From the NCBI GenBank assembly GCA_017612805.1, contig JAGAFD010000002.1:287-64286 (forward strand): a stretch of 64,000 nucleotides of DNA. The letters run 5' to 3'. The notes under the pieces are model-generated. The model searched no databases. It was not told where the DNA came from and saw only the letters and a list, made by a program, of their open reading frames with translations. Shown piece by piece: positions 1-45,448 of the stretch (its first letter is position 1; every line of letters begins with the position of its first letter). Origin of the DNA: Bacilli bacterium (GTDB lineage: Bacteria; Bacillota_I; Bacilli_A; RF39; UBA660). Position numbers and translations under genes: made by a program.

Positions 1-1670
1 ATATTTTCAATACCGCGATAAATAATTGGACTTCTACTATTTGTTAAACAGCCAGATTTCATTCCTAAAGAATCCGTAGTACCACTTCTCTGACCCGATG
101 ACCAAATAACATTATCAACCGCTATATCTACAGGATTTCCATCAAAATATATGGCAGTTCCAATTATGGTTCCGTCGTCATAAGCCTCTTTAGAAGTAAC
201 ATTTCTAAAACGTGCTACGCCAAAATTACCATTAGCTGAAGTTCCGATTGATATTTGTTGACCAATTATAAAATTATTAGCTACCGCAGTATCAACGATA
301 ATACGATTAACATTATTTTCCGCTAATAACGCTTTATCATTAGTATTATTTCTAAAATTAGTAGCTCCAGTACCTAAAGTAGTTTGAGAGTTATAATCCG
401 CATATTCAACTAAATAAAGCATTTGTAAAGCAAAATAATGGTAATCTAACTGACCAAAGTTAGTTCCTACTGCTCTTGATAAAGTTCTAAATGATGTAAT
501 ATTACGATTAACTTCTGGTTCAGTACCACTATATGAATGAATTTGTGTTCCATCATAAGAACTATCATATCTTCCAACACTAAAAGCATTCATTTTAGTA
601 AAACCAGCTACCGGATATTTAGATATTTGGATATATTCATATTCACTATCTTGATATCTTTTATAATAAAATTCAGGAATTTTAGTTAATACTTCCCCAT
701 TAGTACCATCAAATTTAAAGTTTGAATCGCCAATCTTTGCTGTATCTAAACCTGATGTACGATCATAATTATAAGAATAAATTTCTGACCAAGGGGCAAT
801 ATTATCAAAATCATTAACTACCGCAGTACCATCATGGGTCGCATTAGCTACCTTACCAACACTATCATCAGTTCTTTCCCATGTACTTGAAGAAGTAATT
901 AAACTTCTTTTAACCCCATAGATTGGTTTCTTATCAAATATCGCTTTTAAAGTATGATTACTTGCTGTAGTTACTTTAGTTGATGAATCAACATAATACG
1001 GTTCGTAAGGAGTTGCAGTAGAACCTTCTTCTAATTGAATTCTATATATACCATCATATGATTTAATAAATATTCCAATTGCGGTAGTTTCTGATAACGT
1101 AAATGTTGAACTTATGTTAGTTACATTTGTAATATCTTTACTAACAATACTTGTATTATCGCTTTTATATACCATTAAAGTTGCGTATGATTCACTTGTC
1201 GGATTTTGACCAAAATCAAGGCTTATATTATATGTACCAGCATTTAATGATAGCAGCCAATTGGAATTACTATATTCCCAGATTCTTGAATCGGTGGTTG
1301 GTGTTGAATCGCTTATATATCCATTTTCATCCACATTAATACCAAAGTCTATTGCAACACTTGTTAATTCTACCGGATTTAATAAGTTTTTTCCATTCCA
1401 TCCATCAAAGACATAACCAGAAGGTACAGTTGGTTCACATAATTCACCATATTCTTTTCCAAGTTTAACACTTTTAGAATTACAATTAGCATCATCATAA
1501 CTTAAAGTATATGTATTACCAGGAAAATAGCCACCAATAATATTGCCAAAGTTTTTAACAGCTGTAAAGTTTGCTAATGAAACCCCAATAAGCATCACAA
1601 AAACTACCAATAAAACAATTGGTATTAAAAATATTTTTTTATGAGTATTAAATATTTTTATTTTAGCCAT
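1..1670 (-). CDS. Cell-surface protein, partial (C-terminus runs off window start); N-terminal signal-anchor, contains Listeria-Bacteroides (Flg_new-type) repeat signature
   Basis: ATG at 1668-1670 on the minus strand. Hand translation gives MAKIKIFNTHKKIFLIPIVLLVVFVMLIGVSLANFTAVKNF..., open to position 1. Contains ...CEPTVPSGYVFDGWNGKN..., the GY(T/V)FxGW hallmark of the Listeria-Bacteroides repeat. Absent from the ORF track only because it lacks an in-window stop. Confidence 0.55.
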   Translation of the reverse strand, partial: MAKIKIFNTHKKIFLIPIVLLVVFVMLIGVSLANFTAVKNFGNIIGGYFPGNTYTLSYDDANCNSKSVKLGKEYGELCEPTVPSGYVFDGWNGKNLLNPVELTSVAIDFGINVDENGYISDSTPTTDSRIWEYSNSNWLLSLNAGTYNISLDFGQNPTSESYATLMVYKSDNTSIVSKDITNVTNISSTFTLSETTAIGIFIKSYDGIYRIQLEEGSTATPYEPYYVDSSTKVTTASNHTLKAIFDKKPIYGVKRSLITSSSTWERTDDSVGKVANATHDGTAVVNDFDNIAPWSEIYSYNYDRTSGLDTAKIGDSNFKFDGTNGEVLTKIPEFYYKRYQDSEYEYIQISKYPVAGFTKMNAFSVGRYDSSYDGTQIHSYSGTEPEVNRNITSFRTLSRAVGTNFGQLDYHYFALQMLYLVEYADYNSQTTLGTGATNFRNNTNDKALLAENNVNRIIVDTAVANNFIIGQQISIGTSANGNFGVARFRNVTSKEAYDDGTIIGTAIYFDGNPVDIAVDNVIWSSGQRSGTTDSLGMKSGCLTNSRSPIIYRGIEN

Positions 1671-1808
1671 TTTTATATACTCTCCCAATTTTAATTATAA
1701 CATAAAAAAACTAACTTTAAAAGTTAGTTTCATGTATTATCCTTTAATATCCCTAACATCTTAGTAATATTAAAAATAACGGAACACGAGTTAATACATG
1801 TGTGTCCG

Positions 1809-26973: not shown

Positions 26974-28155
26974 TTAAGAAACAAGGATATTTTTAACCGT
27001 TAAATTATCTTGACTATCATATAAATATACATACCAATTTCCCGTTGATGAGAAAGATTCAGTAAAGGTATATTCTTTTACTTTATCAGAAATATCAATC
27101 CATTCCGCATCATCAGGAAGCGTTGATAATTTAGTTATAAAATATTTTTGTAATCCAACATTATCTTTAAATGTTAAAGTAACATTTCTTCCACTAACTG
27201 TATAAGTAATCGTTGGAACAGTAAATTCAACAACTATTTTTAAATAAGTACGATTATTATAATAATCAACCGCATGAAGATAATAGGTTGCCGCCGTTGT
27301 ATATGGGTCAGATGTTATCTCTTTGGTATCACCACCACTTGGAATATCCGCAGTAGTTAATACTTTATTATAAAACATTGTATATGAAGATGGTTCAGAA
27401 GTTGATTTAGTAATTGTATAACCTTTTAGTTTAAGATCATCTTGAAGGGTTGCTTTTATAACACCCCTTGAAACACTATCTAAAGTAATAACTGGTTTAG
27501 TAGTATCAATATCAGCAGCCGCAACCGTAAATGTTGGATGCGTTGGATTTGCTGAACTAATAATTGCTTGATTACCAAATTGATCTACGGCATGAACATA
27601 ATAAGTACCAGCATATTTTGGTTCATAATATACAGTAGCACTCTTTTTATTAGCAGCAAAATTTGTTGGATTATTCATATTGGTTGGACTGGTATTGATT
27701 TCATATTTACCTAAATAACTGGTATCACTAAAGGTAATTTTTACCATACCATATTGTTTAGTAATAGTTACACTAGGTCCGATAAAATCATAACTACCAT
27801 TATCTTCACTATAGTAGCAAGTTCTTTTACCATTTTCATATTTAACATAAACATTAACACTAGTATCTACTTCTGTTTGGGTTTTAGGATTAACCACATA
27901 ATCTTCAATTAAACCTTCCGAAATAAGCGTTCCTACAGATACAATACATGTTTTATTACCACACTCAGCATTATTTTCGTCTAAGCCAGCATAAACACAT
28001 GCTGCTTTCTCAACACGGGATTTAAATTCTTCATATTCTTTTTCATCTTGACGATTAGATAAAGCAACAACATTATTAACAATTATTAATCCCATGATAG
28101 CAATTAAACCTAAAGTTACTAAAAGTTCTGCTATCGTAAAACCATTTTTTTTCAT
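26974..28155 (-). CDS. Type IV pilin/pseudopilin-like protein with C-terminal Ig-like repeats
   Basis: 393 aa. N-terminus MKKNGFTIAELLVTLGLIAIMGLIIV is a class-III prepilin signal (G|FTIAE, Glu at +5). A Cys-bracketed pilin-like core (CGNKTC...C) and two fn3/Ig-like repeats (TKPVITLDSVSRG..., TVPTITYTVSGRNVTL...). Confidence 0.7.
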   Translation of the reverse strand: MKKNGFTIAELLVTLGLIAIMGLIIVNNVVALSNRQDEKEYEEFKSRVEKAACVYAGLDENNAECGNKTCIVSVGTLISEGLIEDYVVNPKTQTEVDTSVNVYVKYENGKRTCYYSEDNGSYDFIGPSVTITKQYGMVKITFSDTSYLGKYEINTSPTNMNNPTNFAANKKSATVYYEPKYAGTYYVHAVDQFGNQAIISSANPTHPTFTVAAADIDTTKPVITLDSVSRGVIKATLQDDLKLKGYTITKSTSEPSSYTMFYNKVLTTADIPSGGDTKEITSDPYTTAATYYLHAVDYYNNRTYLKIVVEFTVPTITYTVSGRNVTLTFKDNVGLQKYFITKLSTLPDDAEWIDISDKVKEYTFTESFSSTGNWYVYLYDSQDNLTVKNILVS

Positions 28156-28201: not shown

Positions 28202-28232
28202 AAAATAAAAGCAAGATATAATCTTGCTTTTT
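28202..28232 (-). terminator. Intrinsic terminator/attenuator between the giant pilin-like gene and the downstream pilin-like gene
   Basis: Hairpin gcaaga-tataa-tcttgc (28211-28227), followed on the minus strand by ttttatttt (complement of 28202-28210) and preceded by TTTTT. Lies 9 nt after the stop at 28236. Confidence 0.5.
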
Positions 28233-28235
28233 GTT

Positions 28236-31200
28236 CTATGGACAAACCGTAATACTATAAACTCTGAATCCAATAGTATCCATATAATAAGATGACTCAA
28301 ATTCAATAGCAACCGTTTTATTTCCTTTACCAGTTGAATATTGGAATGTATGAGTAATCTCACCAGTATTATAAGCATTACCATGACCAGCCTTACAGTT
28401 TGGACTATTAGTTCTAGGAGAAACGTTACAGTTACCAGCACAATTGTTTCCATTTGCATCACAATATCCCGTGATACCTAAAGTATGGTAATAAGTCATA
28501 TTTGGACAGTCCCCTTCATTAATAAGTCCGATAGTACCAGCCAATGTTTGTTTTTCATCACCAACTTTTAAGTATAAATAACGAGTTGGATTACATGTAC
28601 CTCCGGTTCCATAATAACTATTAATAGTATTTAATTTAAATTTAATTGTTACGCTACCATAAGTATTAGTATTTATTGTTCCAAAATTCCATACTTGATG
28701 ATGACGTGCATAACATTCAGATTCTGATAAGTCTGAAGTACATACACCATTTAAGGTATGGCTATAATTGGTTCCATTACTACTAAATAAGGTAGTACAA
28801 TTTTTAATCCAGTTCGCCATGTAACTCTTATTACCTTTTGAACCTTTAGCAATTGTAACTGACGAACTTAATGCATTAATTATTTCATTTGTAACCGTTA
28901 CACCATTTGCTTTAGGAATAGCAATTTCAATTCCTGAAGATGTTGCATTACCAACTGCTTGAACAATTGCAACCGCATGGGTACTAGATAATACTGATAC
29001 ACCCCTTAATACAACATTACTTGTGTTGTTTTCATATGCATTAAAGGTAGCTTTATCTAAATTGGTTCCATAAATATCAACTCGATAATAACCAGCATTT
29101 GCTTTATAATATGGTCCATAATAAGTGGTTGAATTATTATTTGGACTAGTTGTTGAATAATTACTTGTTCCAGTTAAATCAACAATCGATATATCAGCTA
29201 AATTCCATGTAGTAGTGATGTTGTCATTAGTTTGTTCCATTTGTACATAAAATCTAGCTTTAGATTTTCCAGCAGGAACAACAACATCTTTATAATATCT
29301 TCCATAACCGTCACTTAAAGTATCCATTAACTGATAATCACCGATATGTCCATCCCAAGCATTACCAGAAGATTGTGCTGTATATACCAATCCACCACGC
29401 ATATTTAGTGATCCCTTAGTTCTTTTAGCCGTAACAAATACACGATATACCCTTCCAGGTGAAACACTAAACTCATTACCTAAAATAGTATCTCTTGTAT
29501 TAGCATTATATGGACTAGAAGTTGTATATGCCGTTAAACCAGTATCAATAACATCGCCGCCAGTCCATCCAACAAATGTATAATTTGCTTTAGTTGGATT
29601 AGCTAAAGTAATATTATTTGATGCGATTGTATAAGTTGATGTATTTGATGCCGAACCACCATCTAAAGTGTAATAAATTCTAAAATTAGTATTAAATGGT
29701 AAACCGACACTAACTCTTGCGTTATCAATAATACCACTATAAGAAGAAGAGCCAACATAAACCTTTCCAGTAGCAGTCTTTATATTCTTAATTTCATAAT
29801 TAGTTCCAGATGGCCATTGAGTACAATAATCAGTAGCACCAGCACGTTTAGATACACCATTAACATATACATCAGCAGTACCAAATCCATCAATGCTTCC
29901 GTTGCTTGAACCATCTAATACTCCGTTTAAATCAAGATAATATAATGGTGACCATACCGCATATAAATTTACAGTTGAACCATTAGATGTAGTTAAGTTT
30001 TTAACGCTTTGTCCATCTTCATATGCATTTGATCCAGACGATACTTTCTTTAATCTAACATTCTTTATAGTTGCTGAACATCCTGGGAATGCTCTAAATA
30101 AAATATATTTTTTAACACTACCATCACCAGTACTAGATAATGTAAATCTTACACTATAGTGTGTATATGAACTAGTTAATGGTATTTGGTTACTTCCATC
30201 AGTGTTTGTTCCAGTACTTCCATTAGAGTTTTGCCAACTAGCTACTCTTAAGTAGTTAGTATCACCATAGAAATAATTAACTAGTTTTCCGCTACCTTTG
30301 ACATCAACATCCAATTGATAAACTTCACCAGCAGCAAATGGAGCTAGGATACCAAATTGTTTAAAATCACTATACCCACTTTCGCTACTACCTTTAGAAC
30401 CAGAATATTCACCAGTATCATATAATTTTGAAGTATCAGATGAAGAAGTTGACCATCCTGTAAAGATATATCCAGAACGAGTATATGTGTTAGCCGTTAA
30501 TGCCTTAGCAGTGTTATATGTCATACTAATATTAGACATTTGGGTACCTTCACCACCGTTAGCATTAAGCTTAACGGTATAAGTAATTGGTTCAAAAGTT
30601 ATCGTACAAGTTGTGTCGGCAGTAACACTAGCTACTTTAGCCGTAGTACCTGATACAGTACATCCTGTACTAACACTCTTATATTTATAACCGGCTTTAG
30701 CACTAAAGGTTGTTGATGCAGTCTCACCATAATTAACTGCTTTACTAGCATCAGTAACACTACCCATGCTAGAGTTATTAACAGCAAAAGTAACAGTATA
30801 TGAATTTATTGTATATTTTTTAGATGTAGTATGATTAGTTATATCATATAATTTTACGGTATAGGTACCAGCAACGTTTTGTTCATAAGTTGTGGTTGAA
30901 GAAGTTCCTGATAAATTAACCGTTTTTATAATATTAGAATCTTTAATAATTTCATATTTTAGTAATCCAGCGGTATCACTAGCAGTTATTGTAGCCGTTT
31001 TTTTACCATCAAATGATACTGATAAAGTTGGTGCTTTATTATCTATGTATACATTGGCTGGACCAGAACAAGTTGTTTTATTACCAGCATAATCCGTGAT
31101 AATATAGCTTGTTAAAAGGTTAGCACTACCATAAGTTTTACCATCATCTGGGAATGCGGCTTCGTATGGTCTAGTTACACATCCTGATCCATTAGCACCA

Positions 31201-32411
31201 TCATCACATTTAACAATAATGGTATGAGCACCAGATTTCCATGTTGTGTTTTGATTTTCATATACACAATTTGGTCCTGTAGTATCAATATTTCCAACAA
31301 CTACACGAGCAGCATTAAGTGACCAGTTACCTACTTTATCAACAGCCCAAATGTAATATGTACCAACTGGTTTTGATACTTCAGCTTTATTAGTACTCTT
31401 CGACTTTAATTGAACGGCATTAGCACTAGTTTTACTACATTGGTGATTAGTTGCTTCGTTATCATAGATACAGAAATAATCAATTCCTGATCCTTGTTTA
31501 TCATTACCAGTAATAAATATCTTTTTATTAGCTTTAGTCCAGTTAGTATCTACACTAGCGGTAACGGTTGGTAATTCTTTATCAATTCTTACTACAAGGT
31601 ATGTAGTTAAAGTTTCATTAATTTTCTTACCAGCATCATCAATATAGTTAACCGTTAATGATATTTTAAATTTAGTATCATTCATAATGGTAGATGTTGA
31701 TACACGATAAACATTTTTATATTCAGTAGCTTGATTATATGAAGTGATGTTATCTAACCAACCAATAGTTGTCCAGTTAGCATCTTTATTAGAATAATTT
31801 TTATTTTCGTTAACAGCATCCCAATTAATATTTACGATTTGTTCATTACGACGTGCATTTAAATTAGCATCAAGAATTTTAAGCTTTAATACAACATCTT
31901 CTTTTACCCAGAAAGTACGATTGTTTTCAACAGTAATCTTAGACCCTTCAGTTAAACTAGAAGCTTTATATGCATCTAATTGAATTAGTTTTTTAACTTT
32001 TAAATCATCTAAGATACATACACCATCTTGGTTTTGAACTTTTTCATCAATAAATTTAGGAATTGGTTTACCATTTTCAAAATCAATTCTTACTTGATAA
32101 CAAGTTATATCGTTACCAAAAGCATCGATAACCTTTGTTCCCGCTTTATTATCTGCTTCGATATAACCATTTTGTAAAAGTGTTTGAACGGTAATTGAGG
32201 TTTGGTCAATATCACTATAAAGGTTATTCTCTGAAGCGTATTTTGAAGCTTGCGTTTCAATATAACTGAAAATATTTTTGTTTTGACGCTTCTTTAATGT
32301 ATTAGAAATAGCTGAGTAAGCAGGGATTGCTATTAGGACCACTATACCTAATATAACAATGGTTGCTAATAACTCAACTAATGTAAAACCTTTATTCTTT
32401 ATTTTCATCAT
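28236..32411 (-). CDS. Giant (1391 aa) type IV pilin-like surface protein with Listeria-Bacteroides repeats and Cys-rich C-terminal domain
   Basis: N-terminus MMKIKNKGFTLVELLATIVILGIVVLIAIPAY is a canonical prepilin leader plus hydrophobic helix. Internal Flg_new-type repeats (TRSGYIFTGW, ANYTFVGW). The last roughly 200 aa contain about 14 Cys. No sortase or LPXTG signal. Confidence 0.75.
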   Translation of the reverse strand: MMKIKNKGFTLVELLATIVILGIVVLIAIPAYSAISNTLKKRQNKNIFSYIETQASKYASENNLYSDIDQTSITVQTLLQNGYIEADNKAGTKVIDAFGNDITCYQVRIDFENGKPIPKFIDEKVQNQDGVCILDDLKVKKLIQLDAYKASSLTEGSKITVENNRTFWVKEDVVLKLKILDANLNARRNEQIVNINWDAVNENKNYSNKDANWTTIGWLDNITSYNQATEYKNVYRVSTSTIMNDTKFKISLTVNYIDDAGKKINETLTTYLVVRIDKELPTVTASVDTNWTKANKKIFITGNDKQGSGIDYFCIYDNEATNHQCSKTSANAVQLKSKSTNKAEVSKPVGTYYIWAVDKVGNWSLNAARVVVGNIDTTGPNCVYENQNTTWKSGAHTIIVKCDDGANGSGCVTRPYEAAFPDDGKTYGSANLLTSYIITDYAGNKTTCSGPANVYIDNKAPTLSVSFDGKKTATITASDTAGLLKYEIIKDSNIIKTVNLSGTSSTTTYEQNVAGTYTVKLYDITNHTTSKKYTINSYTVTFAVNNSSMGSVTDASKAVNYGETASTTFSAKAGYKYKSVSTGCTVSGTTAKVASVTADTTCTITFEPITYTVKLNANGGEGTQMSNISMTYNTAKALTANTYTRSGYIFTGWSTSSSDTSKLYDTGEYSGSKGSSESGYSDFKQFGILAPFAAGEVYQLDVDVKGSGKLVNYFYGDTNYLRVASWQNSNGSTGTNTDGSNQIPLTSSYTHYSVRFTLSSTGDGSVKKYILFRAFPGCSATIKNVRLKKVSSGSNAYEDGQSVKNLTTSNGSTVNLYAVWSPLYYLDLNGVLDGSSNGSIDGFGTADVYVNGVSKRAGATDYCTQWPSGTNYEIKNIKTATGKVYVGSSSYSGIIDNARVSVGLPFNTNFRIYYTLDGGSASNTSTYTIASNNITLANPTKANYTFVGWTGGDVIDTGLTAYTTSSPYNANTRDTILGNEFSVSPGRVYRVFVTAKRTKGSLNMRGGLVYTAQSSGNAWDGHIGDYQLMDTLSDGYGRYYKDVVVPAGKSKARFYVQMEQTNDNITTTWNLADISIVDLTGTSNYSTTSPNNNSTTYYGPYYKANAGYYRVDIYGTNLDKATFNAYENNTSNVVLRGVSVLSSTHAVAIVQAVGNATSSGIEIAIPKANGVTVTNEIINALSSSVTIAKGSKGNKSYMANWIKNCTTLFSSNGTNYSHTLNGVCTSDLSESECYARHHQVWNFGTINTNTYGSVTIKFKLNTINSYYGTGGTCNPTRYLYLKVGDEKQTLAGTIGLINEGDCPNMTYYHTLGITGYCDANGNNCAGNCNVSPRTNSPNCKAGHGNAYNTGEITHTFQYSTGKGNKTVAIEFESSYYMDTIGFRVYSITVCP

Positions 32412-32449
32412 ATTATCACTATCCTATTCCATTATAAAATATTATTAAC

Positions 32450-32475
32450 AAAAAAACAATTCTTTTAGAATTGTT
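32450..32475 (-). terminator. Intrinsic terminator after the M23 peptidase gene
   Basis: Hairpin aacaattc-tttta-gaattgtt (8-bp stem, 32455-32475), directly after the stop at 32476 and followed on the minus strand by T7 (complement of 32450-32456). Confidence 0.55.
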
Positions 32476-33693
32476 TTAATATCTTCGATAGAACCATGTT
32501 CCACGTGCTGGGAAATATTTACCAGGATCAATCATATTTGCTTTAAATTTTGAGAATGATGAATAACCATTTGCTCCACCACCTAAATAATAACCTTTAG
32601 ATATTGAGTAATGTAAATGTACCCCAGTAGAACACGTATCCCAACCACCATTTTTCTTTAATGTTGAACCAGCGCCACCAACATAACCAATTACACTTTG
32701 GTTAGTTACAGTATCACCTACTTTAACATTAACGCTTAGTAAATGGGCATATTGAGTAGTATAAGCAACGCCATTAACGTTATGATGAATATAAACGATG
32801 TTACCACCACATGAACTTTTTAAAGTTACTGCAGCAACCATTCCGTTAGCAGCTGAATATACTTTAACACCCATCGAAGTTGTTGATAAGTCAATGCCGT
32901 AGTGGAAAGAAGAGGTCTTTCCAGTTAAAGGATTAACACGCATACCAAATGGTGATGTTACAACACCTTTTTCAAGCGGTCTAATTAATGTAGAAGAAGC
33001 TAGTACTTTAACACAGTCAGATAATAATTGGGTATCCGAAGTACATATACTCTTATAGTACTTAATTAACGCTTCTTGGTTTTTAATTTGTTCATTAATA
33101 TCATCACCAACATCTTCAAGTTCATCCATATAATTATCTAGCGCTACTATTGCATTACTATAATTATTAATGGCCACATCTAGTTGGTTTTGTTTTTCTC
33201 TTAGTTCTTCTTTTAAACGTTGATTTTCAATTATTAAATCATTTAAGGTTTGTAATTGATCTTGATTATAACTAGTTATCAATGATATAGCCTTACTACG
33301 CATTGACATATCAGCAATACTTTCTGCAGCCATTAAATATTCTAAATAAATATTCTCGTTACTAGTTAATTCATTAAATTTTAATATTTCAGCAGTTTCA
33401 CCTTTAGTTTTTTCGATACTTGCTTCACATTCAGCTATTTTATTAGTTGCTGCATTAATGTCATTTTCTGCTTGTTGTTTTTCATTATAAGCATTATAGA
33501 TAGCTTGTTTCTTTTGATTAATTGAACTTCTCGTTGCATTTTTATTTTGAACATTAATATTTTTTTGCCTTTTTAGTTCTTCTAATTCGGCATTTAATTC
33601 TTTAATGTTTTTCGCTTTTGAATCTGCTTTAATATTAAGAGGAACTAAAATTACAACTAAAATTACTAAGATTGTTACAACTTTATTTCTCAT
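32476..33693 (-). CDS. M23 (LytM-type) metallopeptidase with N-terminal coiled coil (EnvC-like, FtsEX-associated)
   Basis: 405 aa. Signal peptide, roughly 200-aa coiled coil, C-terminal M23 motifs (HYGIDL, ...GGNIVYIHH..., HLHYSI). Start overlaps the ftsX stop by 4 nt. Confidence 0.8.
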   Translation of the reverse strand: MRNKVVTILVILVVILVPLNIKADSKAKNIKELNAELEELKRQKNINVQNKNATRSSINQKKQAIYNAYNEKQQAENDINAATNKIAECEASIEKTKGETAEILKFNELTSNENIYLEYLMAAESIADMSMRSKAISLITSYNQDQLQTLNDLIIENQRLKEELREKQNQLDVAINNYSNAIVALDNYMDELEDVGDDINEQIKNQEALIKYYKSICTSDTQLLSDCVKVLASSTLIRPLEKGVVTSPFGMRVNPLTGKTSSFHYGIDLSTTSMGVKVYSAANGMVAAVTLKSSCGGNIVYIHHNVNGVAYTTQYAHLLSVNVKVGDTVTNQSVIGYVGGAGSTLKKNGGWDTCSTGVHLHYSISKGYYLGGGANGYSSFSKFKANMIDPGKYFPARGTWFYRRY

Positions 33694-42354: not shown

Positions 42355-43728
42355 TTAAATATTATATAGTTTATTACGTTTTTTAAGAATAACAATTGAT
42401 GTAATTAATATTAGTAATAATGAAGATGAAATAATTATCGAAATAAACATACCAGTATTAGGATTTTTAATATCTTCGGTCGTAGTTGATGTTTCTTCAC
42501 TTACATCACTAGCTGGGGTAGTTGGTGTTTCAGTAGTTGTAGGTTCAGTTGTTTCTGGTTCAGTTGCTTCAGCTGCTAAATAAGCAGTAATTGATGAATC
42601 AGCATTAGTATCATATTTAATATAATAACCAGTAGGAATAGTAATATCCGTTAAATTAAATCTTGTTCCTGTAGTTCCATCAATTTTGGCTTTTTGAATA
42701 ACAGTACCATCATAGAATTCTAATACATCATTGTAATATCCAGAACCAAGACTACCATTTGGAATATTAATAGTTGGACTATCATTAGTAACCGTACCAT
42801 CATTTTTACCAATAATTAATTTGTTACCACTATAAATAAATATTCCACTACTATTCGTAGCATTAATTGTACCACCAGTAATAGTTACTGTTCCAGCAGT
42901 TCCACCATAAACACCAGGATCAGCAGAAATGGAAATATTAGAATTAATAATCTTTTCTGTTGAAGTTGAATTAATTGTACCACCATTAATTTCAATTGCT
43001 GAAGTTCCATCTAAGTTAGTAAAGGCAGTTTGATAAGCATTAAATACACCATCGTTAATAACAATCTTACGTAAGGTTGTAGTTGAAGATGTACCACCTA
43101 TAGAATATGAATATGTTGTATTTTGGAATAAGTTTTTAGCAGTGGTAGTAGCAATGAAATTACCACCGTTAACCGTTATTAAACCAGCATTAGTGAAAAT
43201 CATATTATGTTTAGTATCTTCTGTGAAGGTACCAGAATTAATGGTCATTGTTCCACCATTATTCTCAAATGTACCAACATACGTACCACCATTAACAGTT
43301 AATAATGAGGCATCAGAATTATTTCTAAAAACAAATGTATATGTATCACCATTTGTTCTAGTATTAACATTACTAAATTCTACTGTATCATTATTTAAGA
43401 AAGATATCCCATTACTTGGATTATATAAAGTACCATTTTTAATAGTAACCGTACCATTGTTTAAAATATAACCAGTATAAGAATGATCATTTAAATTAAT
43501 GATAATGTTCTTATCCGCATAAATGGTAGTAGTACCATCTGGAGCACTATAATCTAAAACAATATCATCTTGTAAAATGATTTCTGCACCAGTAGTTGCA
43601 GCTGTAATTGCTTCTTGTAAGCTTTCATACTCATCAGTACCAATCTTAGCAACCGTTTCAGCACTAGCAAAAACCGGTAAGATAATAGCTAATACTAATA
43701 AGTATTTTAAATTTTTTAAGATCTTCAT
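42355..43728 (-). CDS. Secreted beta-helix repeat surface protein with Thr/Pro/Glu linker and sortase-like C-terminal sorting signal (NPNTG + TM + KKRNK)
   Basis: 457 aa. Signal peptide (…VFASA|ET). Repeated GGT-containing beta-solenoid units (NGGTY, GGTMTINSGTF, ITVNGGNF, IEINGGTINST, VTITGGTINAT). C-terminus TEPETTEPTTTETPTTP...IKNPNTGMFISIIISSSLLLILITSIVILKKRNK. Confidence 0.55.
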   Translation of the reverse strand: MKILKNLKYLLVLAIILPVFASAETVAKIGTDEYESLQEAITAATTGAEIILQDDIVLDYSAPDGTTTIYADKNIIINLNDHSYTGYILNNGTVTIKNGTLYNPSNGISFLNNDTVEFSNVNTRTNGDTYTFVFRNNSDASLLTVNGGTYVGTFENNGGTMTINSGTFTEDTKHNMIFTNAGLITVNGGNFIATTTAKNLFQNTTYSYSIGGTSSTTTLRKIVINDGVFNAYQTAFTNLDGTSAIEINGGTINSTSTEKIINSNISISADPGVYGGTAGTVTITGGTINATNSSGIFIYSGNKLIIGKNDGTVTNDSPTINIPNGSLGSGYYNDVLEFYDGTVIQKAKIDGTTGTRFNLTDITIPTGYYIKYDTNADSSITAYLAAEATEPETTEPTTTETPTTPASDVSEETSTTTEDIKNPNTGMFISIIISSSLLLILITSIVILKKRNKLYNI

Positions 43729-43805: not shown

Positions 43806-44750
43806 TTACTGTGGCTTAAATAAATAGGCATTACTAGCTTCTTTTGCTTCTTTTTCCATCTCTTCTTCGTCAGCCGGAATACCATAATAATCTACATCGT
43901 AATTTTTTGTGGGCTTATCACCATAAAGTGTTTTAATATCATCTTCATCAAGTTCAAATTCATCTTCTAAAGAATGATATTTATTTGGGATAAATTTACG
44001 ATTACTAGATATTCTTATATTACCCATTTTACTAGTAGCAATACTATAAGTATAGCTATCTTTAGCTTCATTTAATTCTACTTTAATATTAGTAATATTA
44101 TCATCTTTAATAATATCCGCTATTTTTTCAAAATCTTGTTCATATATTTTTAAGAATAAATAAGCATCTCTAAAAGTATCATATTTTTTTAATGAATTAA
44201 ATAAACGTTCTCTTGCATCACCATATAACTTACGATTTATTTGATAACCACATTCATAAGCTAAATCAGTAGAACTTTCAAAAACAGCTTGTAAGTGATA
44301 TGATTCTACTTCTTGATATTTTAAAGAATATAAGGCTCTAAACACTTTTCTTTCATTAGAACTACGATATATTTCAAAATAACGATTAATCGTTTTATTT
44401 AATAAATATTTACCTACTTCGCAATTATCAATTCTAGCTTTTTTAACACTATCAATTTTATCTTTAATCAGATAACCAGTTAATTCATGAAGTTTTTGAT
44501 CATTAAAACAAACTAATTTATTTTTAGTTTGAAGAGTACCTACGGTAACATTTTTAATATCAAAAGGAATAAATTGATTAACTTTATTTTTAATAAAATC
44601 ATCTTGTGACCAACAACCTGATAAAAGATAATCAGCTTCCCATAAATAAAATTTATCTGGTTTTGCACCTAAATTATCTAATACTTCAGTACTTAACGAT
44701 ACTGATTGATTGTTATCACCATTTAAATAAATTTTAAAACATCTACTCAT
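43806..44750 (-). CDS. Hypothetical cytoplasmic protein
   Basis: 314 aa with no TM. Start overlaps the upstream ORF stop (ATGA). Confidence 0.4.
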   Translation of the reverse strand: MSRCFKIYLNGDNNQSVSLSTEVLDNLGAKPDKFYLWEADYLLSGCWSQDDFIKNKVNQFIPFDIKNVTVGTLQTKNKLVCFNDQKLHELTGYLIKDKIDSVKKARIDNCEVGKYLLNKTINRYFEIYRSSNERKVFRALYSLKYQEVESYHLQAVFESSTDLAYECGYQINRKLYGDARERLFNSLKKYDTFRDAYLFLKIYEQDFEKIADIIKDDNITNIKVELNEAKDSYTYSIATSKMGNIRISSNRKFIPNKYHSLEDEFELDEDDIKTLYGDKPTKNYDVDYYGIPADEEEMEKEAKEASNAYLFKPQ

Positions 44751-45100
44751 TTAAAACCCTCCGTTTTATATTTTCCACAATCAATATAAACATTATAGGT
44801 ATATTCAAGATTAGTTTTTTCAACGATGATGTAACCCTTACATTTATTCTTATTTACTTTTAATTCATCAATATATTTTTCTTCTTTTAGAGTTTTGATA
44901 TCCACTTTTAATTTGTTTTTTTCCTCAGGGTATAAATCATTATCTGTAACATACTTTTCACAAGCATTACCTAATTCTTTTTCAAAATCATTATACATTT
45001 TCAACTTTTTATTATAGGTAATTCCAATAAAAGTTAATGTACCAACAATCATAAAAATCATTAAACCCCAAATAATTGTCATAGATTGCATCTTTTTCAT
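44747..45100 (-). CDS. Small membrane-anchored protein, paralog of 45110..45448 (pseudopilin-like C-terminal Cys pair)
   Basis: 117 aa. N-terminal TM. C-terminus NKCKGYIIVEKTNLEYTYNVYIDCG parallels NNCVGYVLVKNVDGKTVIKNNITCD of the neighbouring gene. Confidence 0.45.
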   Translation of the reverse strand: MKKMQSMTIIWGLMIFMIVGTLTFIGITYNKKLKMYNDFEKELGNACEKYVTDNDLYPEEKNKLKVDIKTLKEEKYIDELKVNKNKCKGYIIVEKTNLEYTYNVYIDCGKYKTEGFK

Positions 45101-45109
45101 ATCATCACT

Positions 45110-45448
45110 CTAATCACAAGTAATATTGTTTTTTATTACTGTTTTTCCATCGACATTTTTTACTAAAACATATCCAACACAGTTATTAGCTATATTTAAG
45201 TCAGTTTCTTCTTTTAATTTTTCTAACGAAAGCATTATATCATAAGGAGCATCATATGTACCAAATTTATCATATAAATATTCATTAACTGCTGCTTCGA
45301 CATTATTACTAGTATTATCTTTTGCAAAACCATTATATAATCTAGCAATATAGAAAATAGCAATTAACAAAAAGACTAGTAACAATGCTATTAAGAGTAG
45401 CATTTCTGCTAAGCCCCAACCATGATTGTTTAATTTCATAGTTATCAC
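45110..45448 (-). CDS. Prepilin-type N-terminal signal protein (minor pseudopilin-like)
   Basis: 112 aa. MKLNNHGWGLAEMLLLIALLLVFLLIAIFY fits G|WGLAE with Glu at +5, the class-III signal consensus. C-terminal Cys pair. Confidence 0.5.
   Translation of the reverse strand: MITMKLNNHGWGLAEMLLLIALLLVFLLIAIFYIARLYNGFAKDNTSNNVEAAVNEYLYDKFGTYDAPYDIMLSLEKLKEETDLNIANNCVGYVLVKNVDGKTVIKNNITCD

Follow-up and report, generated by a model that had tools for sequence, protein, structure and literature searches.

The ORF at positions 28236..32411 of the 64-kb window (i.e. the whole stretch of DNA that was analysed) lies on the minus strand, begins with ATG and encodes 1391 aa plus a stop; a sequence-only reading made beforehand had given coordinates and length exactly, leaving the strand unstated. 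The product is identical to the deposited protein MBO4245186.1, carrying the NCBI name ‘InlB B-repeat-containing protein [Bacilli bacterium]’, and has relatives at 55–81 % identity. A chance open frame can therefore be dismissed: this modular pilin-like ORF is a real gene, whose source is an uncultured rumen bacterium. Its features and those of its flanks are the following:

32412..32477, minus strand: intergenic region 5′ of the giant gene (read by eye; RNAfold −11.9 kcal/mol)
28236..32411, minus strand: complete ORF of the modular type IV pilin-like protein (identity to MBO4245186.1)
32388..32411, minus strand: leader MMKIKNKG, residues 1–8 (sequence, N_methyl and TIGR02532 above cut-offs, invariant residues)
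32007..32387, minus strand: pilin module, residues 9–135 (AlphaFold, profile and sequence matches)
30582..31991, minus strand: conserved stalk, residues 141–610 (AlphaFold, Foldseek, conservation)
29952..30581, minus strand: Flg_new (Listeria-Bacteroides) repeat 1, residues 611–820 (Pfam best stretch 611–669; BLAST module map)
30027..30419, minus strand: insert 1, residues 665–795, a beta module nested in Flg_new repeat 1
29694..29951, minus strand: ‘YYLDLNG’ beta domain, residues 821–906 (model pLDDT about 75–84)
28803..29690, minus strand: Flg_new repeat 2, residues 908–1203 (TIGR02543 match, module map)
29157..29540, minus strand: insert 2, residues 958–1085, a beta-sandwich (model pLDDT about 64–80)
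28896..29135, minus strand: insert 3, residues 1093–1172, a small beta domain (low-confidence model)
28239..28802, minus strand: C-terminal Cys-rich domain, residues 1204–1391 (alignment, Cys count, searches)
28207..28231, minus strand: terminator-like hairpin plus T-run, 5 nt past the stop codon of the giant gene
26974..28155, minus strand: neighbouring pilin-like protein of 393 aa with the leader MKKNG/FTIAELL (N_methyl 17.7 bits, below the cut-off)

Within the upstream intergenic region, a hairpin plus T-run (32450–32477) ends the preceding M23-peptidase gene and is followed by TATAAT and then an AGGA ribosome-binding site; the giant gene therefore looks like a transcription unit of its own.

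The leader is short and basic, with Gly at −1 and Phe at +1, i.e. a canonical class III (prepilin) signal peptide, MMKIKNKG/FTLVE (residues 7–32 being KGFTLVELLATIVILGIVVLIAIPAY), with prepilin-peptidase cleavage predicted between G8 and F9. The mature sequence, FTLVELLATIVILGIVVLIAIPAY, has a hydrophobic alpha1N with Glu5, Gly14, Pro22 and Tyr24 (mature numbering). Such a leader had already been recognised by eye, and both Pfam N_methyl (PF07963; 29.3 bits, cut-off 21.2) and TIGR02532 (27.1 bits, cut-off 16.3) bear this out. In fact, G−1, F+1, T+2, L+3 and E+5 (G8, F9, T10, L11 and E13) are invariant in 12/12 close relatives, even where the remaining protein is only 40–60 % identical; G, F, T and E do not vary in a 17-member set including distant relatives, N_methyl is found at the extreme N-terminus in 58 of 60 more distant relatives, and E5, G14 and P22 are conserved across the pilin-like family. 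Loss of the G-F-T-L-x-E leader from homologues had been named as grounds for abandoning the pilin-like identity; since the leader is conserved in all three sets, that objection does not apply.

According to AlphaFold (mean pLDDT 83.7 for the model covering helix, head, linker and Ig-like domains), the pilin module consists of an alpha1 helix of ~50 residues (11–61) and a small beta head (70–124) with Cys104/Cys132, pLDDT being 60–85 in this part; this predicted lollipop fold is the one expected of a pilin. The N-terminal 65 residues resemble solved pilins by sequence (9egp, 8tj2), the largest of the solved major pilins matched having 208 aa. Residues 7–88 also match the ComGC profile NF040999 (E = 1.7e-9), at 37.7 bits, i.e. 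well under the 75-bit equivalog cut-off, and comG genes are absent nearby, so that an assignment to the ComGC competence pilin was rejected. The pilins of classical Tad systems are small proteins of the Flp kind, made as prepilins of ~50–80 aa and processed by TadV, whose Flp motif G/xxxxEY is unlike GFTLxE; with 1391 aa, a mature FTLVEL having Leu rather than Tyr at +6, and an N_methyl-type leader, the protein was not assigned to the Flp/Tad (type IVc) pilins either. [quoted passage not shown]

A flexible, low-confidence linker is predicted at 136–140, between the pilin module and a stalk (141–610) modelled as about five all-beta Ig-like domains (pLDDT mostly 80–95) with D-x-x-x-P linkers between them. 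The motifs D-x-[AV]-G-N and GSG recur in the stalk, Cys314/325/382/402/411/448 are conserved, and its Foldseek matches are adhesin rods of tandem Ig/FN3 domains, e.g. GhpA and the ice-adhesin extender. The five-domain rod has been kept throughout a large family. From residue ~62 onwards, both AlphaFold models consist of beta structure only, and the protein contains 12.0 % Thr, 9.6 % Ser, 9.3 % Asn and 8.4 % Gly, in line with its initial description as a series of Thr/Ser/Asn/Gly-rich beta modules.

Beyond the stalk, Flg_new (PF09479) matches two stretches (54.4 bits, cut-off 27) and TIGR02543 matches residues 939–964 (34.1 bits, cut-off 20.95); the motifs by which these repeats had been spotted, SGYIFTGW and ANYTFVGW, lie at 646–653 and 942–949, respectively. 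The same reading had them shared with a partial ORF (3..1673, minus strand), which holds only as far as a single sub-threshold Flg_new match (20.8 versus 27 bits). Repeat 1 is interrupted by one inserted module and repeat 2 by two nested inserts, placed between the G-W motif and the last strand. Insert 1 is also found on the non-pilin Flg_new proteins P0030, P0031 and P0033 and on the pilin-like P0074, insert 2 is common to P0042, P0150, P0032 and P0041 (50–63 % identity), and insert 3 occurs besides only in P0006 and P0150 (69 % identity). The nested inserts and the ‘YYLDLNG’ domain are common to many InlB B-repeat proteins at 40–70 % identity, the latter having 40–66 % identity to its counterparts within the family and in other Flg_new proteins.

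Insert 1 resembles Pfam CBM_4_9 (PF02018) weakly (E = 0.027, 15.3 bits, below the cut-off of 25.9), and Foldseek on the distal part returns CBM4-2 and CBM22, a search that does not report which domain was aligned. By its predicted fold, insert 2 is probably CBM-like, with the same limit on what the fold search indicates. Since profiles built from inserts 1 and 2 retrieved nothing significant from the PDB sequences, ‘carbohydrate-binding’ is a fold-level hint only, and an assignment to CBM4/9/22 by sequence was rejected. The C-terminal domain is Cys-rich, as had been proposed, with 10 rather than about 14 cysteines in the last 200 aa (positions 1205–1390; 22 in the whole protein), eight of which are conserved in the alignment. 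It is restricted to the pilin-like relatives P0002, P0003, P0005 and P0008 (30–55 % identity) and gave 0 matches among Pfam or PDB sequences; the AlphaFold model of the C-terminal part of the protein is weak (mean pLDDT 57), and the Cys-rich loop 1293–1349 is not confidently modelled.

About a dozen relatives retain the first ~560 aa (55–81 % identity) with the C-terminal modules swapped. A phmmer search with residues 1–560 returned 2664 cluster representatives, most of which align from their own residue 2–6; they are mostly pilin-like proteins of 500–1500 aa from uncultured gut Bacilli/“Tenericutes”. Pilins this large had been called rare. As a general statement this is true, but the present lineage is an exception, with 27 of the 138 pilin-like ORFs in related loci having at least 500 aa and eight at least 1000 aa. 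Ordinary 180-aa GFTLVELL pilins are encoded in the related loci L003, L006, L007 and L023.

Within the 64-kb window, searches for a type IV filament ATPase, a platform gene, a prepilin peptidase (Peptidase_A24) motif or gene and a comG operon found none. Genetic linkage to assembly genes is given by the paralogue P0004, which shares 81 % identity with the giant protein (P0001) across the N-terminal 570 aa and is encoded directly downstream of CbiA/TadZ-like, TadA-like and two T2SSF (TadB/TadC-like) genes. The TadA-like ATPase scores 298 bits with TIGR03819, below the cut-off of 373, and 132.6 bits with the bindosome ATPase BasE, likewise sub-threshold (cut-off 1000). Both paralogues probably belong to the same MAG, given that they come from the same samples, have NCBI accessions 976 apart and lie in sequence of similar composition (GC 27.7 vs 27.2 %, tetranucleotide r = 0.978). 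In L023, four TadZABC-like genes are interleaved with five GFTLVELL pilin genes, and in a related gut MAG (L036) PilC and PilD (A24 peptidase) are encoded beside an 871-aa pilin. Whether homologues always co-occur with comG/pil loci had been named as a check; any type IV filament gene lay within 10 kb in only 8 of the 80 related loci. The paralogue's position beside Tad-like genes favours filament display, the pairing with a Tad-like machine being putative. In the minimal monoderm Tad set, the peptidase is encoded at a separate locus (PMC6916266).

With N_methyl (IPR012902) and Flg_new on one polypeptide, and with further domains of Ig-like and beta-sandwich type in the models, the giant protein is an unusually large member of an already described class, the ‘modular pilins’ (PMC8179133). 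A precedent is given by Streptococcus sanguinis PilB and PilC, in which a short pilin module having Glu5 is combined with vWA modules or with Ig-like and lectin modules; both are believed to lie at the tip, and their ligands are host proteins and glycans (PMC8179133, PMC9934059). The giant protein is like them in its monoderm host, its canonical class III signal peptide with Glu5, and a pilin module of unusually small size to which non-pilin modules are grafted after a linker (in PilC, Ig-like then lectin); a direct adhesive role of the extra modules and a tip location are likewise presumed. In contrast, it is ~3 times larger than PilC (1391 aa versus ~53 kDa for processed PilC), has at least 10 domains instead of two or three, includes the family-wide five-domain rod, and carries Flg_new repeats, nested beta-sandwiches and a Cys-rich domain rather than vWA or ConA-like effectors. 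Moreover, its gene lies outside a pil operon, and the sole linked machinery (that of the paralogue) is Tad-like and not T4aP.

The P0004 locus itself resembles the Tad (type IVc) locus of Bifidobacterium breve, tadZ-tadA-tadB-tadC-flp-tadE-tadF (PMC6916266), in its minimal gene set and order, i.e. a ParA/CbiA-like TadZ, a TadA-like ATPase, two T2SSF platform proteins with one domain each and then pilin(s), as well as in the peptidase being outside the locus and in the gut commensal host. It differs in that its ATPase stays under the TIGR03819 cut-off and in that the pilin-like genes have a GFTLxE (N_methyl, T4a/Com/T2SS-type) leader and encode proteins of 180 to >1000 aa, whereas Flp pilins have ~60 aa and the Flp motif.

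Taken together, we consider the gene product to be a modular type IV pilin, i.e. a minor pilin/adhesin carried on the type IV filament of a monoderm, with a probability of about 0.55. A pilin ‘carrier’ would be fused to ‘effector’ modules, inserted into the membrane via its N-terminal hydrophobic helix and cut after Gly8 by a prepilin peptidase whose gene lies in another part of the genome, after which the mature N-terminus (F1, E5, G14, P22) would dock the small pilin module into a filament most likely made by the TadZ/TadA/TadB/TadC-like genes flanking the closest paralogue. Because of its bulk, this low-abundance subunit would most likely sit at or near the tip, where the Ig-like rod could keep the distal modules tens of nanometres off the filament for ligand binding. 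The effectors would be the two Flg_new repeats with their nested CBM-like beta-sandwiches, one more beta domain and a terminal domain rich in disulfides, an architecture that fits the adhesin role suggested at the outset; the probable ligands are glycans from plant material, from mucus or from other cells in the rumen. Paralogues that share this carrier but differ in their tips would equip the cell with several binding specificities served by a single machine.

The scarcity of nearby machinery in related loci and its absence from the window count against a filament pilin, as do the need for a roughly 150-kDa protein to cross the cell wall to reach a pilus tip, the weak C-terminal model and a shared genome of P0001 and P0004 that is inferred rather than proven. 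Possibly, though we doubt it, the protein is a pilin-anchored surface protein that never polymerises, its class III signal peptide serving only membrane insertion and perhaps cleavage, with the N-terminal helix or a very short pseudopilus as anchor and the rod, ~20 nm long, spanning the cell wall to bring the binding modules outside, similar to the bindosome of archaea, in which sugar-binding proteins carry such signal peptides. A monocistronic gene with terminator-like hairpins on both sides and no adjacent assembly genes, the 72 of 80 related loci without machinery genes within 10 kb and the BasE match all suit such an anchor, which would moreover need just such a conserved rod; the protein is also far larger than the pilins known to be incorporated. 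However, E5, G14 and P22, which matter for filament packing and not just for cleavage, are all kept, the closest paralogue is the gene immediately 3′ of tadC, such pilins interleave with assembly genes in L023, and the modular pilins studied by experiment, PilB and PilC, occur in filaments. That the leader merely resembles a prepilin signal by chance in an ordinary Sec-dependent surface protein or adhesin is highly improbable: the NCBI name refers to the InlB B-repeat only and the C-terminal modules also occur on Flg_new proteins without N_methyl (P0030, P0031, P0033, P0042), but the motif exceeds two curated cut-offs, stays invariant while the rest of the protein diverges, sits at residue 2–6 in 58/60 distant relatives, and is followed by 120 residues that fold as a pilin module in the model and match ComGC/PilA-type sequences.

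If the protein does enter a filament, it could instead be a major or frequent body subunit, giving a ‘bottle-brush’ whose shaft is decorated by Ig-like rods and binding modules. Type IV pili gain a subunit with every ~1-nm rise, where packing 1391 aa is sterically implausible; this reading is therefore unlikely, the more so as the 180-aa GFTLVELL pilins are better candidates for a major subunit and several paralogues with differing tips point to accessory rather than structural subunits. Nevertheless, with Glu5 in place a further subunit can stack on top of the giant protein, and no small canonical major pilin gene adjoins the giant gene in the window. Tip-capping subunits typically lack Glu5 (PMC9934059), and the linker at 136–140 fits the case of Raynaud et al., in which a flexible linker makes a location in the filament body possible (PMC8179133).

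A minor pilin/adhesin, as we prefer to see it, also shares traits with other systems. As in the monoderm competence major pilin ComGC, the leader and first ~80 residues align, including L-x-x-L-x-x-G-Y-[IL] after alpha1; ComGC, however, has about 100 aa without extra modules. CofB/TcpB-type minor pilins of type IVb pili and GspK are also large, have extra beta domains linked after the pilin module, and are believed to sit at the tip and mediate partner binding. These proteins of diderm Proteobacteria have about 500 aa and form a trimeric tip or insert into an HIJK-type complex, and show no sequence or detected fold relationship to the giant protein. The two above-threshold Flg_new repeats are shared with the InlB B-repeat surface proteins of Bacillota/Bacteroidota, which have ordinary signal peptides and other anchors, whereas in the giant protein a pilin carrier bears these modules. 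Finally, the pilin modules of the giant protein and of the neighbouring 393-aa protein share 32 % identity; the neighbour also has Ig-like domains and may be a partner subunit.

The gene encoding the giant protein is an ORF of 1391 codons with an ATG start (28236..32411), exactly of the position and length given by the sequence-only reading, and lies on the minus strand. The N-terminal sequence of the protein is MMKIKNKGFTLVELLATIVILGIVVLIAIPAY, with cleavage predicted between G8 and F9, after which the mature N-terminus shows Glu5, Gly14, Pro22 and Tyr24, i.e. the residues tied in type IVa pilins and pseudopilins to subunit packing and alpha1N helix melting. A cut at this position is predicted to yield the semi-tryptic peptide FTLVELLATIVILGIVVLIAIPAYSAISNTLK. 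The canonical prepilin leader claimed earlier was borne out by Pfam N_methyl (29.3 bits, cut-off 21.2) and TIGR02532 (27.1 bits, cut-off 16.3), and the Flg_new repeats by Pfam Flg_new (54.4 bits in two stretches, cut-off 27) and TIGR02543 (34.1 bits, cut-off 20.95), with both quoted motifs located at residues 646-653 and 942-949. The Thr/Ser/Asn/Gly-rich composition was likewise confirmed. Within the last 200 residues, 10 cysteines were counted rather than about 14, and the repeats said to be shared with the partial ORF at 3..1673 (-) came down to a single Flg_new match below threshold.

Terminator-like hairpins on both sides of the gene, together with a TATAAT box and an AGGA ribosome-binding site upstream, make it look like its own transcription unit. 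The window has a G+C content of about 27 % and contains housekeeping genes, i.e. parA/parB, ychF, ftsE/ftsX, an M23 PcsB-like peptidase and genes for ribosomal proteins and tRNA synthetases, while the flanks of relatives include gyrase genes. An identical protein is deposited as MBO4245186.1 (‘MAG: InlB B-repeat-containing protein [Bacilli bacterium]’), and the giant protein is present on ruminant gut metagenome contigs of up to 133 kb.

An AlphaFold2 model of the N-terminal half (residues 1-610; alignment of 17 sequences; mean pLDDT 83.7) consists of a helix (11-61), a small beta head (70-124), a low-confidence linker (136-140) and about five all-beta domains up to residue 610. Residues 1-65 match solved pilins by sequence and residues 7-88 are ComGC-like with a score under the family cut-off, while Foldseek against the PDB returned only tandem Ig/FN3-like rods for this model, such as the GhpA grappling hook, the ice-adhesin extender and alpha2-macroglobulins. 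The C-terminal modules (611-1391) were mapped by BLAST against about 150 collected relatives, as follows.

Residues 611-820 (window 29952-30581, minus strand): Flg_new repeat 1, split by a nested insert
Residues 665-795: insert 1, of about 130 aa, nested in Flg_new repeat 1
Residues 821-906: ‘YYLDLNG’ beta domain
Residues 908-1203 (window 28803-29690, minus strand): Flg_new repeat 2, with two nested inserts
Residues 958-1085 and 1093-1172: inserts 2 and 3, nested in Flg_new repeat 2
Residues 1204-1391: Cys-rich terminal domain

Both Flg_new units are thus interrupted, by about 130 and about 230 aa, with the inserts sitting between the G-[YF]-x-F-x-G-W motif and the last ‘...LYAxW’ strand. The same nesting is found in four Flg_new proteins that are not pilins (P0030, P0031, P0033 and P0042), and Flg_new therefore seems to serve as a scaffold into which binding modules are inserted. 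Profile searches of inserts 1 and 2 against PDB sequences gave nothing significant, and hhalign did not demonstrate homology between the two (probability 2.8 %). A homology search with residues 958-1391 returned one protein alone, P0150, without even the self-match, from which no more follows than that these modules are either rare or badly covered by the index. Alignments A3-A7 for the C-terminal half were discarded, since a check in Python showed that MAFFT had stacked fragments of different modules; the C-terminal model was built on the collinear alignment A8 only (residues 821-1391, with insert 1 outside).

Twelve close relatives of 780-1391 aa have the first ~560 residues in common at 39-81 % identity. 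Retention of the leader in homologues, on which the sequence-only reading had made its proposal depend, was observed in nearly all of those tested: G8, F9, T10, L11 and E13 are invariant in these 12 proteins, and N_methyl matched 58 of 60 more distant relatives tested. The latter came from an exhaustive phmmer search with residues 1-560, which yielded 2664 cluster representatives at E <= 1e-3 (383 at E <= 1e-10), mostly of 500-1500 aa and aligning from their own residue 2-6. In a scan of one genome per species, the relatives were overwhelmingly from uncultured gut ‘Bacilli’ and ‘Tenericutes’ MAGs, and some are already annotated in the database as prepilin-type proteins.

The C-terminal modules vary among the 12 close relatives (Flg_new, ALK_LTK glycine-rich and others), and the Cys-rich end domain is confined to four of them; DUF7743, TSP1, Big_13, HYR and ALK_LTK_GRD recur among the 60 tested. 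Inserts 1 and 2 and the YYLDLNG domain occur also in Flg_new proteins without a pilin leader, so surface proteins borne on pilins and those exported conventionally exchange modules. When compared with the gene of its closest paralogue, P0004 (MBO4246162.1), the giant gene shows 85 % DNA identity across the first 1587 nt and abrupt divergence thereafter. In other rumen MAGs, relatives are encoded in tandem arrays, with three or four large pilin genes in a row. Two of these arrays (L003 3826-13093 and L006 5760-16583) encode pilins of 670-1313 aa upstream of gyrB/gyrA-like genes; neighbouring paralogues are identical in the first ~36 residues and differ in their C-terminal modules (Flg_new versus ALK_LTK glycine-rich domain), which suggests carrier duplication or gene conversion combined with tip exchange.

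No genes for an assembly ATPase, a platform protein or an A24 prepilin peptidase were found in the 64-kb window, including by a motif search for the peptidase. P0004 comes from the same samples as the giant protein, with an accession number 976 apart, and the two contigs are nearly identical in G+C and tetranucleotide usage. Its gene directly follows a CbiA/ParA-like gene, a gene for a 434-aa ATPase with TadA as best match (TIGR03819, 298 bits; next VirB11 and FlaI) and two single-domain T2SSF genes. This is the minimal monoderm Tad arrangement of Bifidobacterium breve, in which the peptidase is likewise encoded elsewhere (PMC6916266).

The same four Tad-like genes are interleaved with five GFTLVELL pilin genes (180-504 aa) in a deer-rumen MAG. 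At the P0004 locus (L004 6189-13270) and in this MAG (L023 6327-17466), pilins with a T4a/Com-type rather than an Flp-type leader, of sizes including 463, 504 and 1089 aa, are genetically coupled to a minimal Tad-like gene set (CbiA/TadZ-like protein, TadA-like ATPase and two T2SSF proteins of a single domain each). No description of such a pairing of a Tad-like motor with GFTLVELL-type pilins was found in the literature searched. In the uncultured ‘Tenericutes’ gut MAG UMGS592 (L036 4655-12761), PilC- and PilD-type genes lie 2.5 kb from the gene of an 871-aa pilin, so that components of T4a/Com type, not of Tad type, are used by some related lineages of the source organism. These 8 kb hold a PilC-type platform (two T2SSF domains), a PilD-type peptidase (A24_N_bact and Peptidase_A24), the 871-aa N_methyl/Big_3_2 pilin and an ALK_LTK glycine-rich-domain protein. 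As to co-occurrence with filament genes, a question raised by the sequence-only reading, a type IV filament gene was present within 10 kb in only 8 of 80 related loci; therefore, most of the large pilin genes are dispersed.

On every criterion that can be tested in sequence, the giant protein qualifies as a type IV pilin and also as a modular pilin in the sense of Raynaud et al. 2021 (PMC8179133). Among the analogues that have been studied, PilC of S. sanguinis comes closest; it has a canonical leader with Glu5 and a very short pilin module followed by an Ig-like module and a lectin, binds glycans and, with PilA and PilB, is presumably located at the pilus tip (PMC9934059). Because of these pilin and modular-pilin features and the analogy to PilC, we favour a role as a minor, adhesive subunit in a type IV filament, probably close to its tip (probability about 0.55); the Ig-like rod of the protein would present glycan-binding modules. 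For the giant protein we infer cleavage, incorporation into a filament, a position therein and a ligand.

The main rival is a pilin-anchored, wall-spanning adhesin that is never polymerised, to be weighed with the machinery-free window and the dispersed genes on one side and the Tad-like set beside P0004 on the other; we consider it possible but rather unlikely. Such a protein would parallel, in bacteria, the surface proteins that archaea equip with class III signal peptides. A subunit of the filament body appears improbable, and a chance likeness of the N-terminus to a prepilin leader, set beside the invariant leader residues of the relatives, very improbable indeed.

The kind itself, i.e. 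modular pilins, is already known and is the current explanation for many functions gained by simple type IV filaments, but to our knowledge detailed studies exist for just two of them, S. sanguinis PilB and PilC. What differs here is the scale of the giant protein (1391 aa, at least ten domains) and a multi-Ig stalk conserved within a large family, as yet uncharacterised, in genome-reduced gut Bacilli; the shuffling of tips is evident, and N_methyl-type pilins are likely to use a Tad-like motor. The concept of modular pilins would thereby extend to far larger, multi-module subunits, with a conserved rod that could act as a spacer across the Gram-positive wall or past it, effector tips for which shuffling with ordinary surface proteins is visible, and a minimal Tad-like motor as likely partner. 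It is tempting to speculate, although we hold this only tentatively, that genome-reduced, uncultured gut and rumen Bacilli (‘Tenericutes’/RF39-like MAGs) possess an undescribed family of stalked pilins, each made of a ComGC-like module and a conserved Ig-like rod with about five domains, whose C-terminal tips would be swapped through recombination with ordinary Flg_new surface proteins, and whose paralogues, tandem or dispersed, a single minimal monoderm Tad-like (TadZABC) machine would display despite their T4a/Com-type GFTLxE leaders. If true, this hybrid type IV filament of Tad motor and N_methyl pilins would be an exchangeable adhesin rack for glycan-rich substrates. Pilus-mounted CBM-like modules would offer a testable hypothesis of how these bacteria attach to plant fibre, mucus or partner cells.

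Further genes of the window were noted, as follows.

26974-28155, minus strand: 393-aa pilin-like protein, leader MKKNG/FTIAELL (N_methyl 17.7 bits, just under the cut-off)
44747-45100 and 45110-45448, minus strand: adjacent small genes for 117-aa and 112-aa proteins with the look of pilin modules
21935-22669, within 20672-23328, minus strand: archaeal/SipW-type signal peptidase I (TIGR02228, 104 bits, cut-off 51.85)
42355-43728, minus strand: 457-aa secreted protein with Thr/Gly/Asn-rich beta-repeats and a Thr/Pro/Glu-rich spacer

The 393-aa protein, encoded directly downstream of the giant gene, shares 32 % identity with the giant protein in the pilin module, carries Ig-like repeats, three or four in number, with the same D-x-x-G-N and D-T-T-K-P motifs, and may be its partner subunit; no orthologue was seen beside any relative of the giant gene. 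The genes further downstream (bPH, LysM, membrane-protein and SipW-like peptidase genes) were also considered as members of a conserved operon with the giant gene, which was rejected, as none recurs beside relatives.

By BLASTP, the 117-aa protein matches GFTLxE pilin N-terminal modules at three loci of relatives (L084, L065 and L048; 27-33 % identity, E 1e-7 to 6e-5). Its N-terminus, MKKMQSMTIIWGLMIF, is without Gly(-1) and Glu5, in which it resembles S. sanguinis PilA and GspK, nucleating or capping subunits devoid of Glu5. The 112-aa protein starts ...NNHG/WGLAEM, where G(-1) and E5 can be recognised by eye; there is no Pfam or NCBIfam match for either protein.

The SipW-type peptidase gene is flanked by genes for 194-aa and 416-aa proteins whose N-termini look SipW-dependent (TasA/camelysin-type) by eye (...AFFKSEEEAGSVEIGTGSF...), and the partial Flg_new protein at 3-1673 (-) has a similar N-terminus (...SLANFTAVKNFGNI...); no NCBIfam family model confirmed a TasA/SipW-substrate signal in these proteins. 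The peptidase and the flanking proteins may constitute a second, TasA-like surface-fibre system. Finally, the 457-aa protein ends in ‘NPNTG’, a hydrophobic stretch and a basic tail and weakly matches sortase-dependent surface proteins (NF053819, E = 1.8e-4, under cut-off); it may be a substrate of sortase whose sorting motif is non-canonical.
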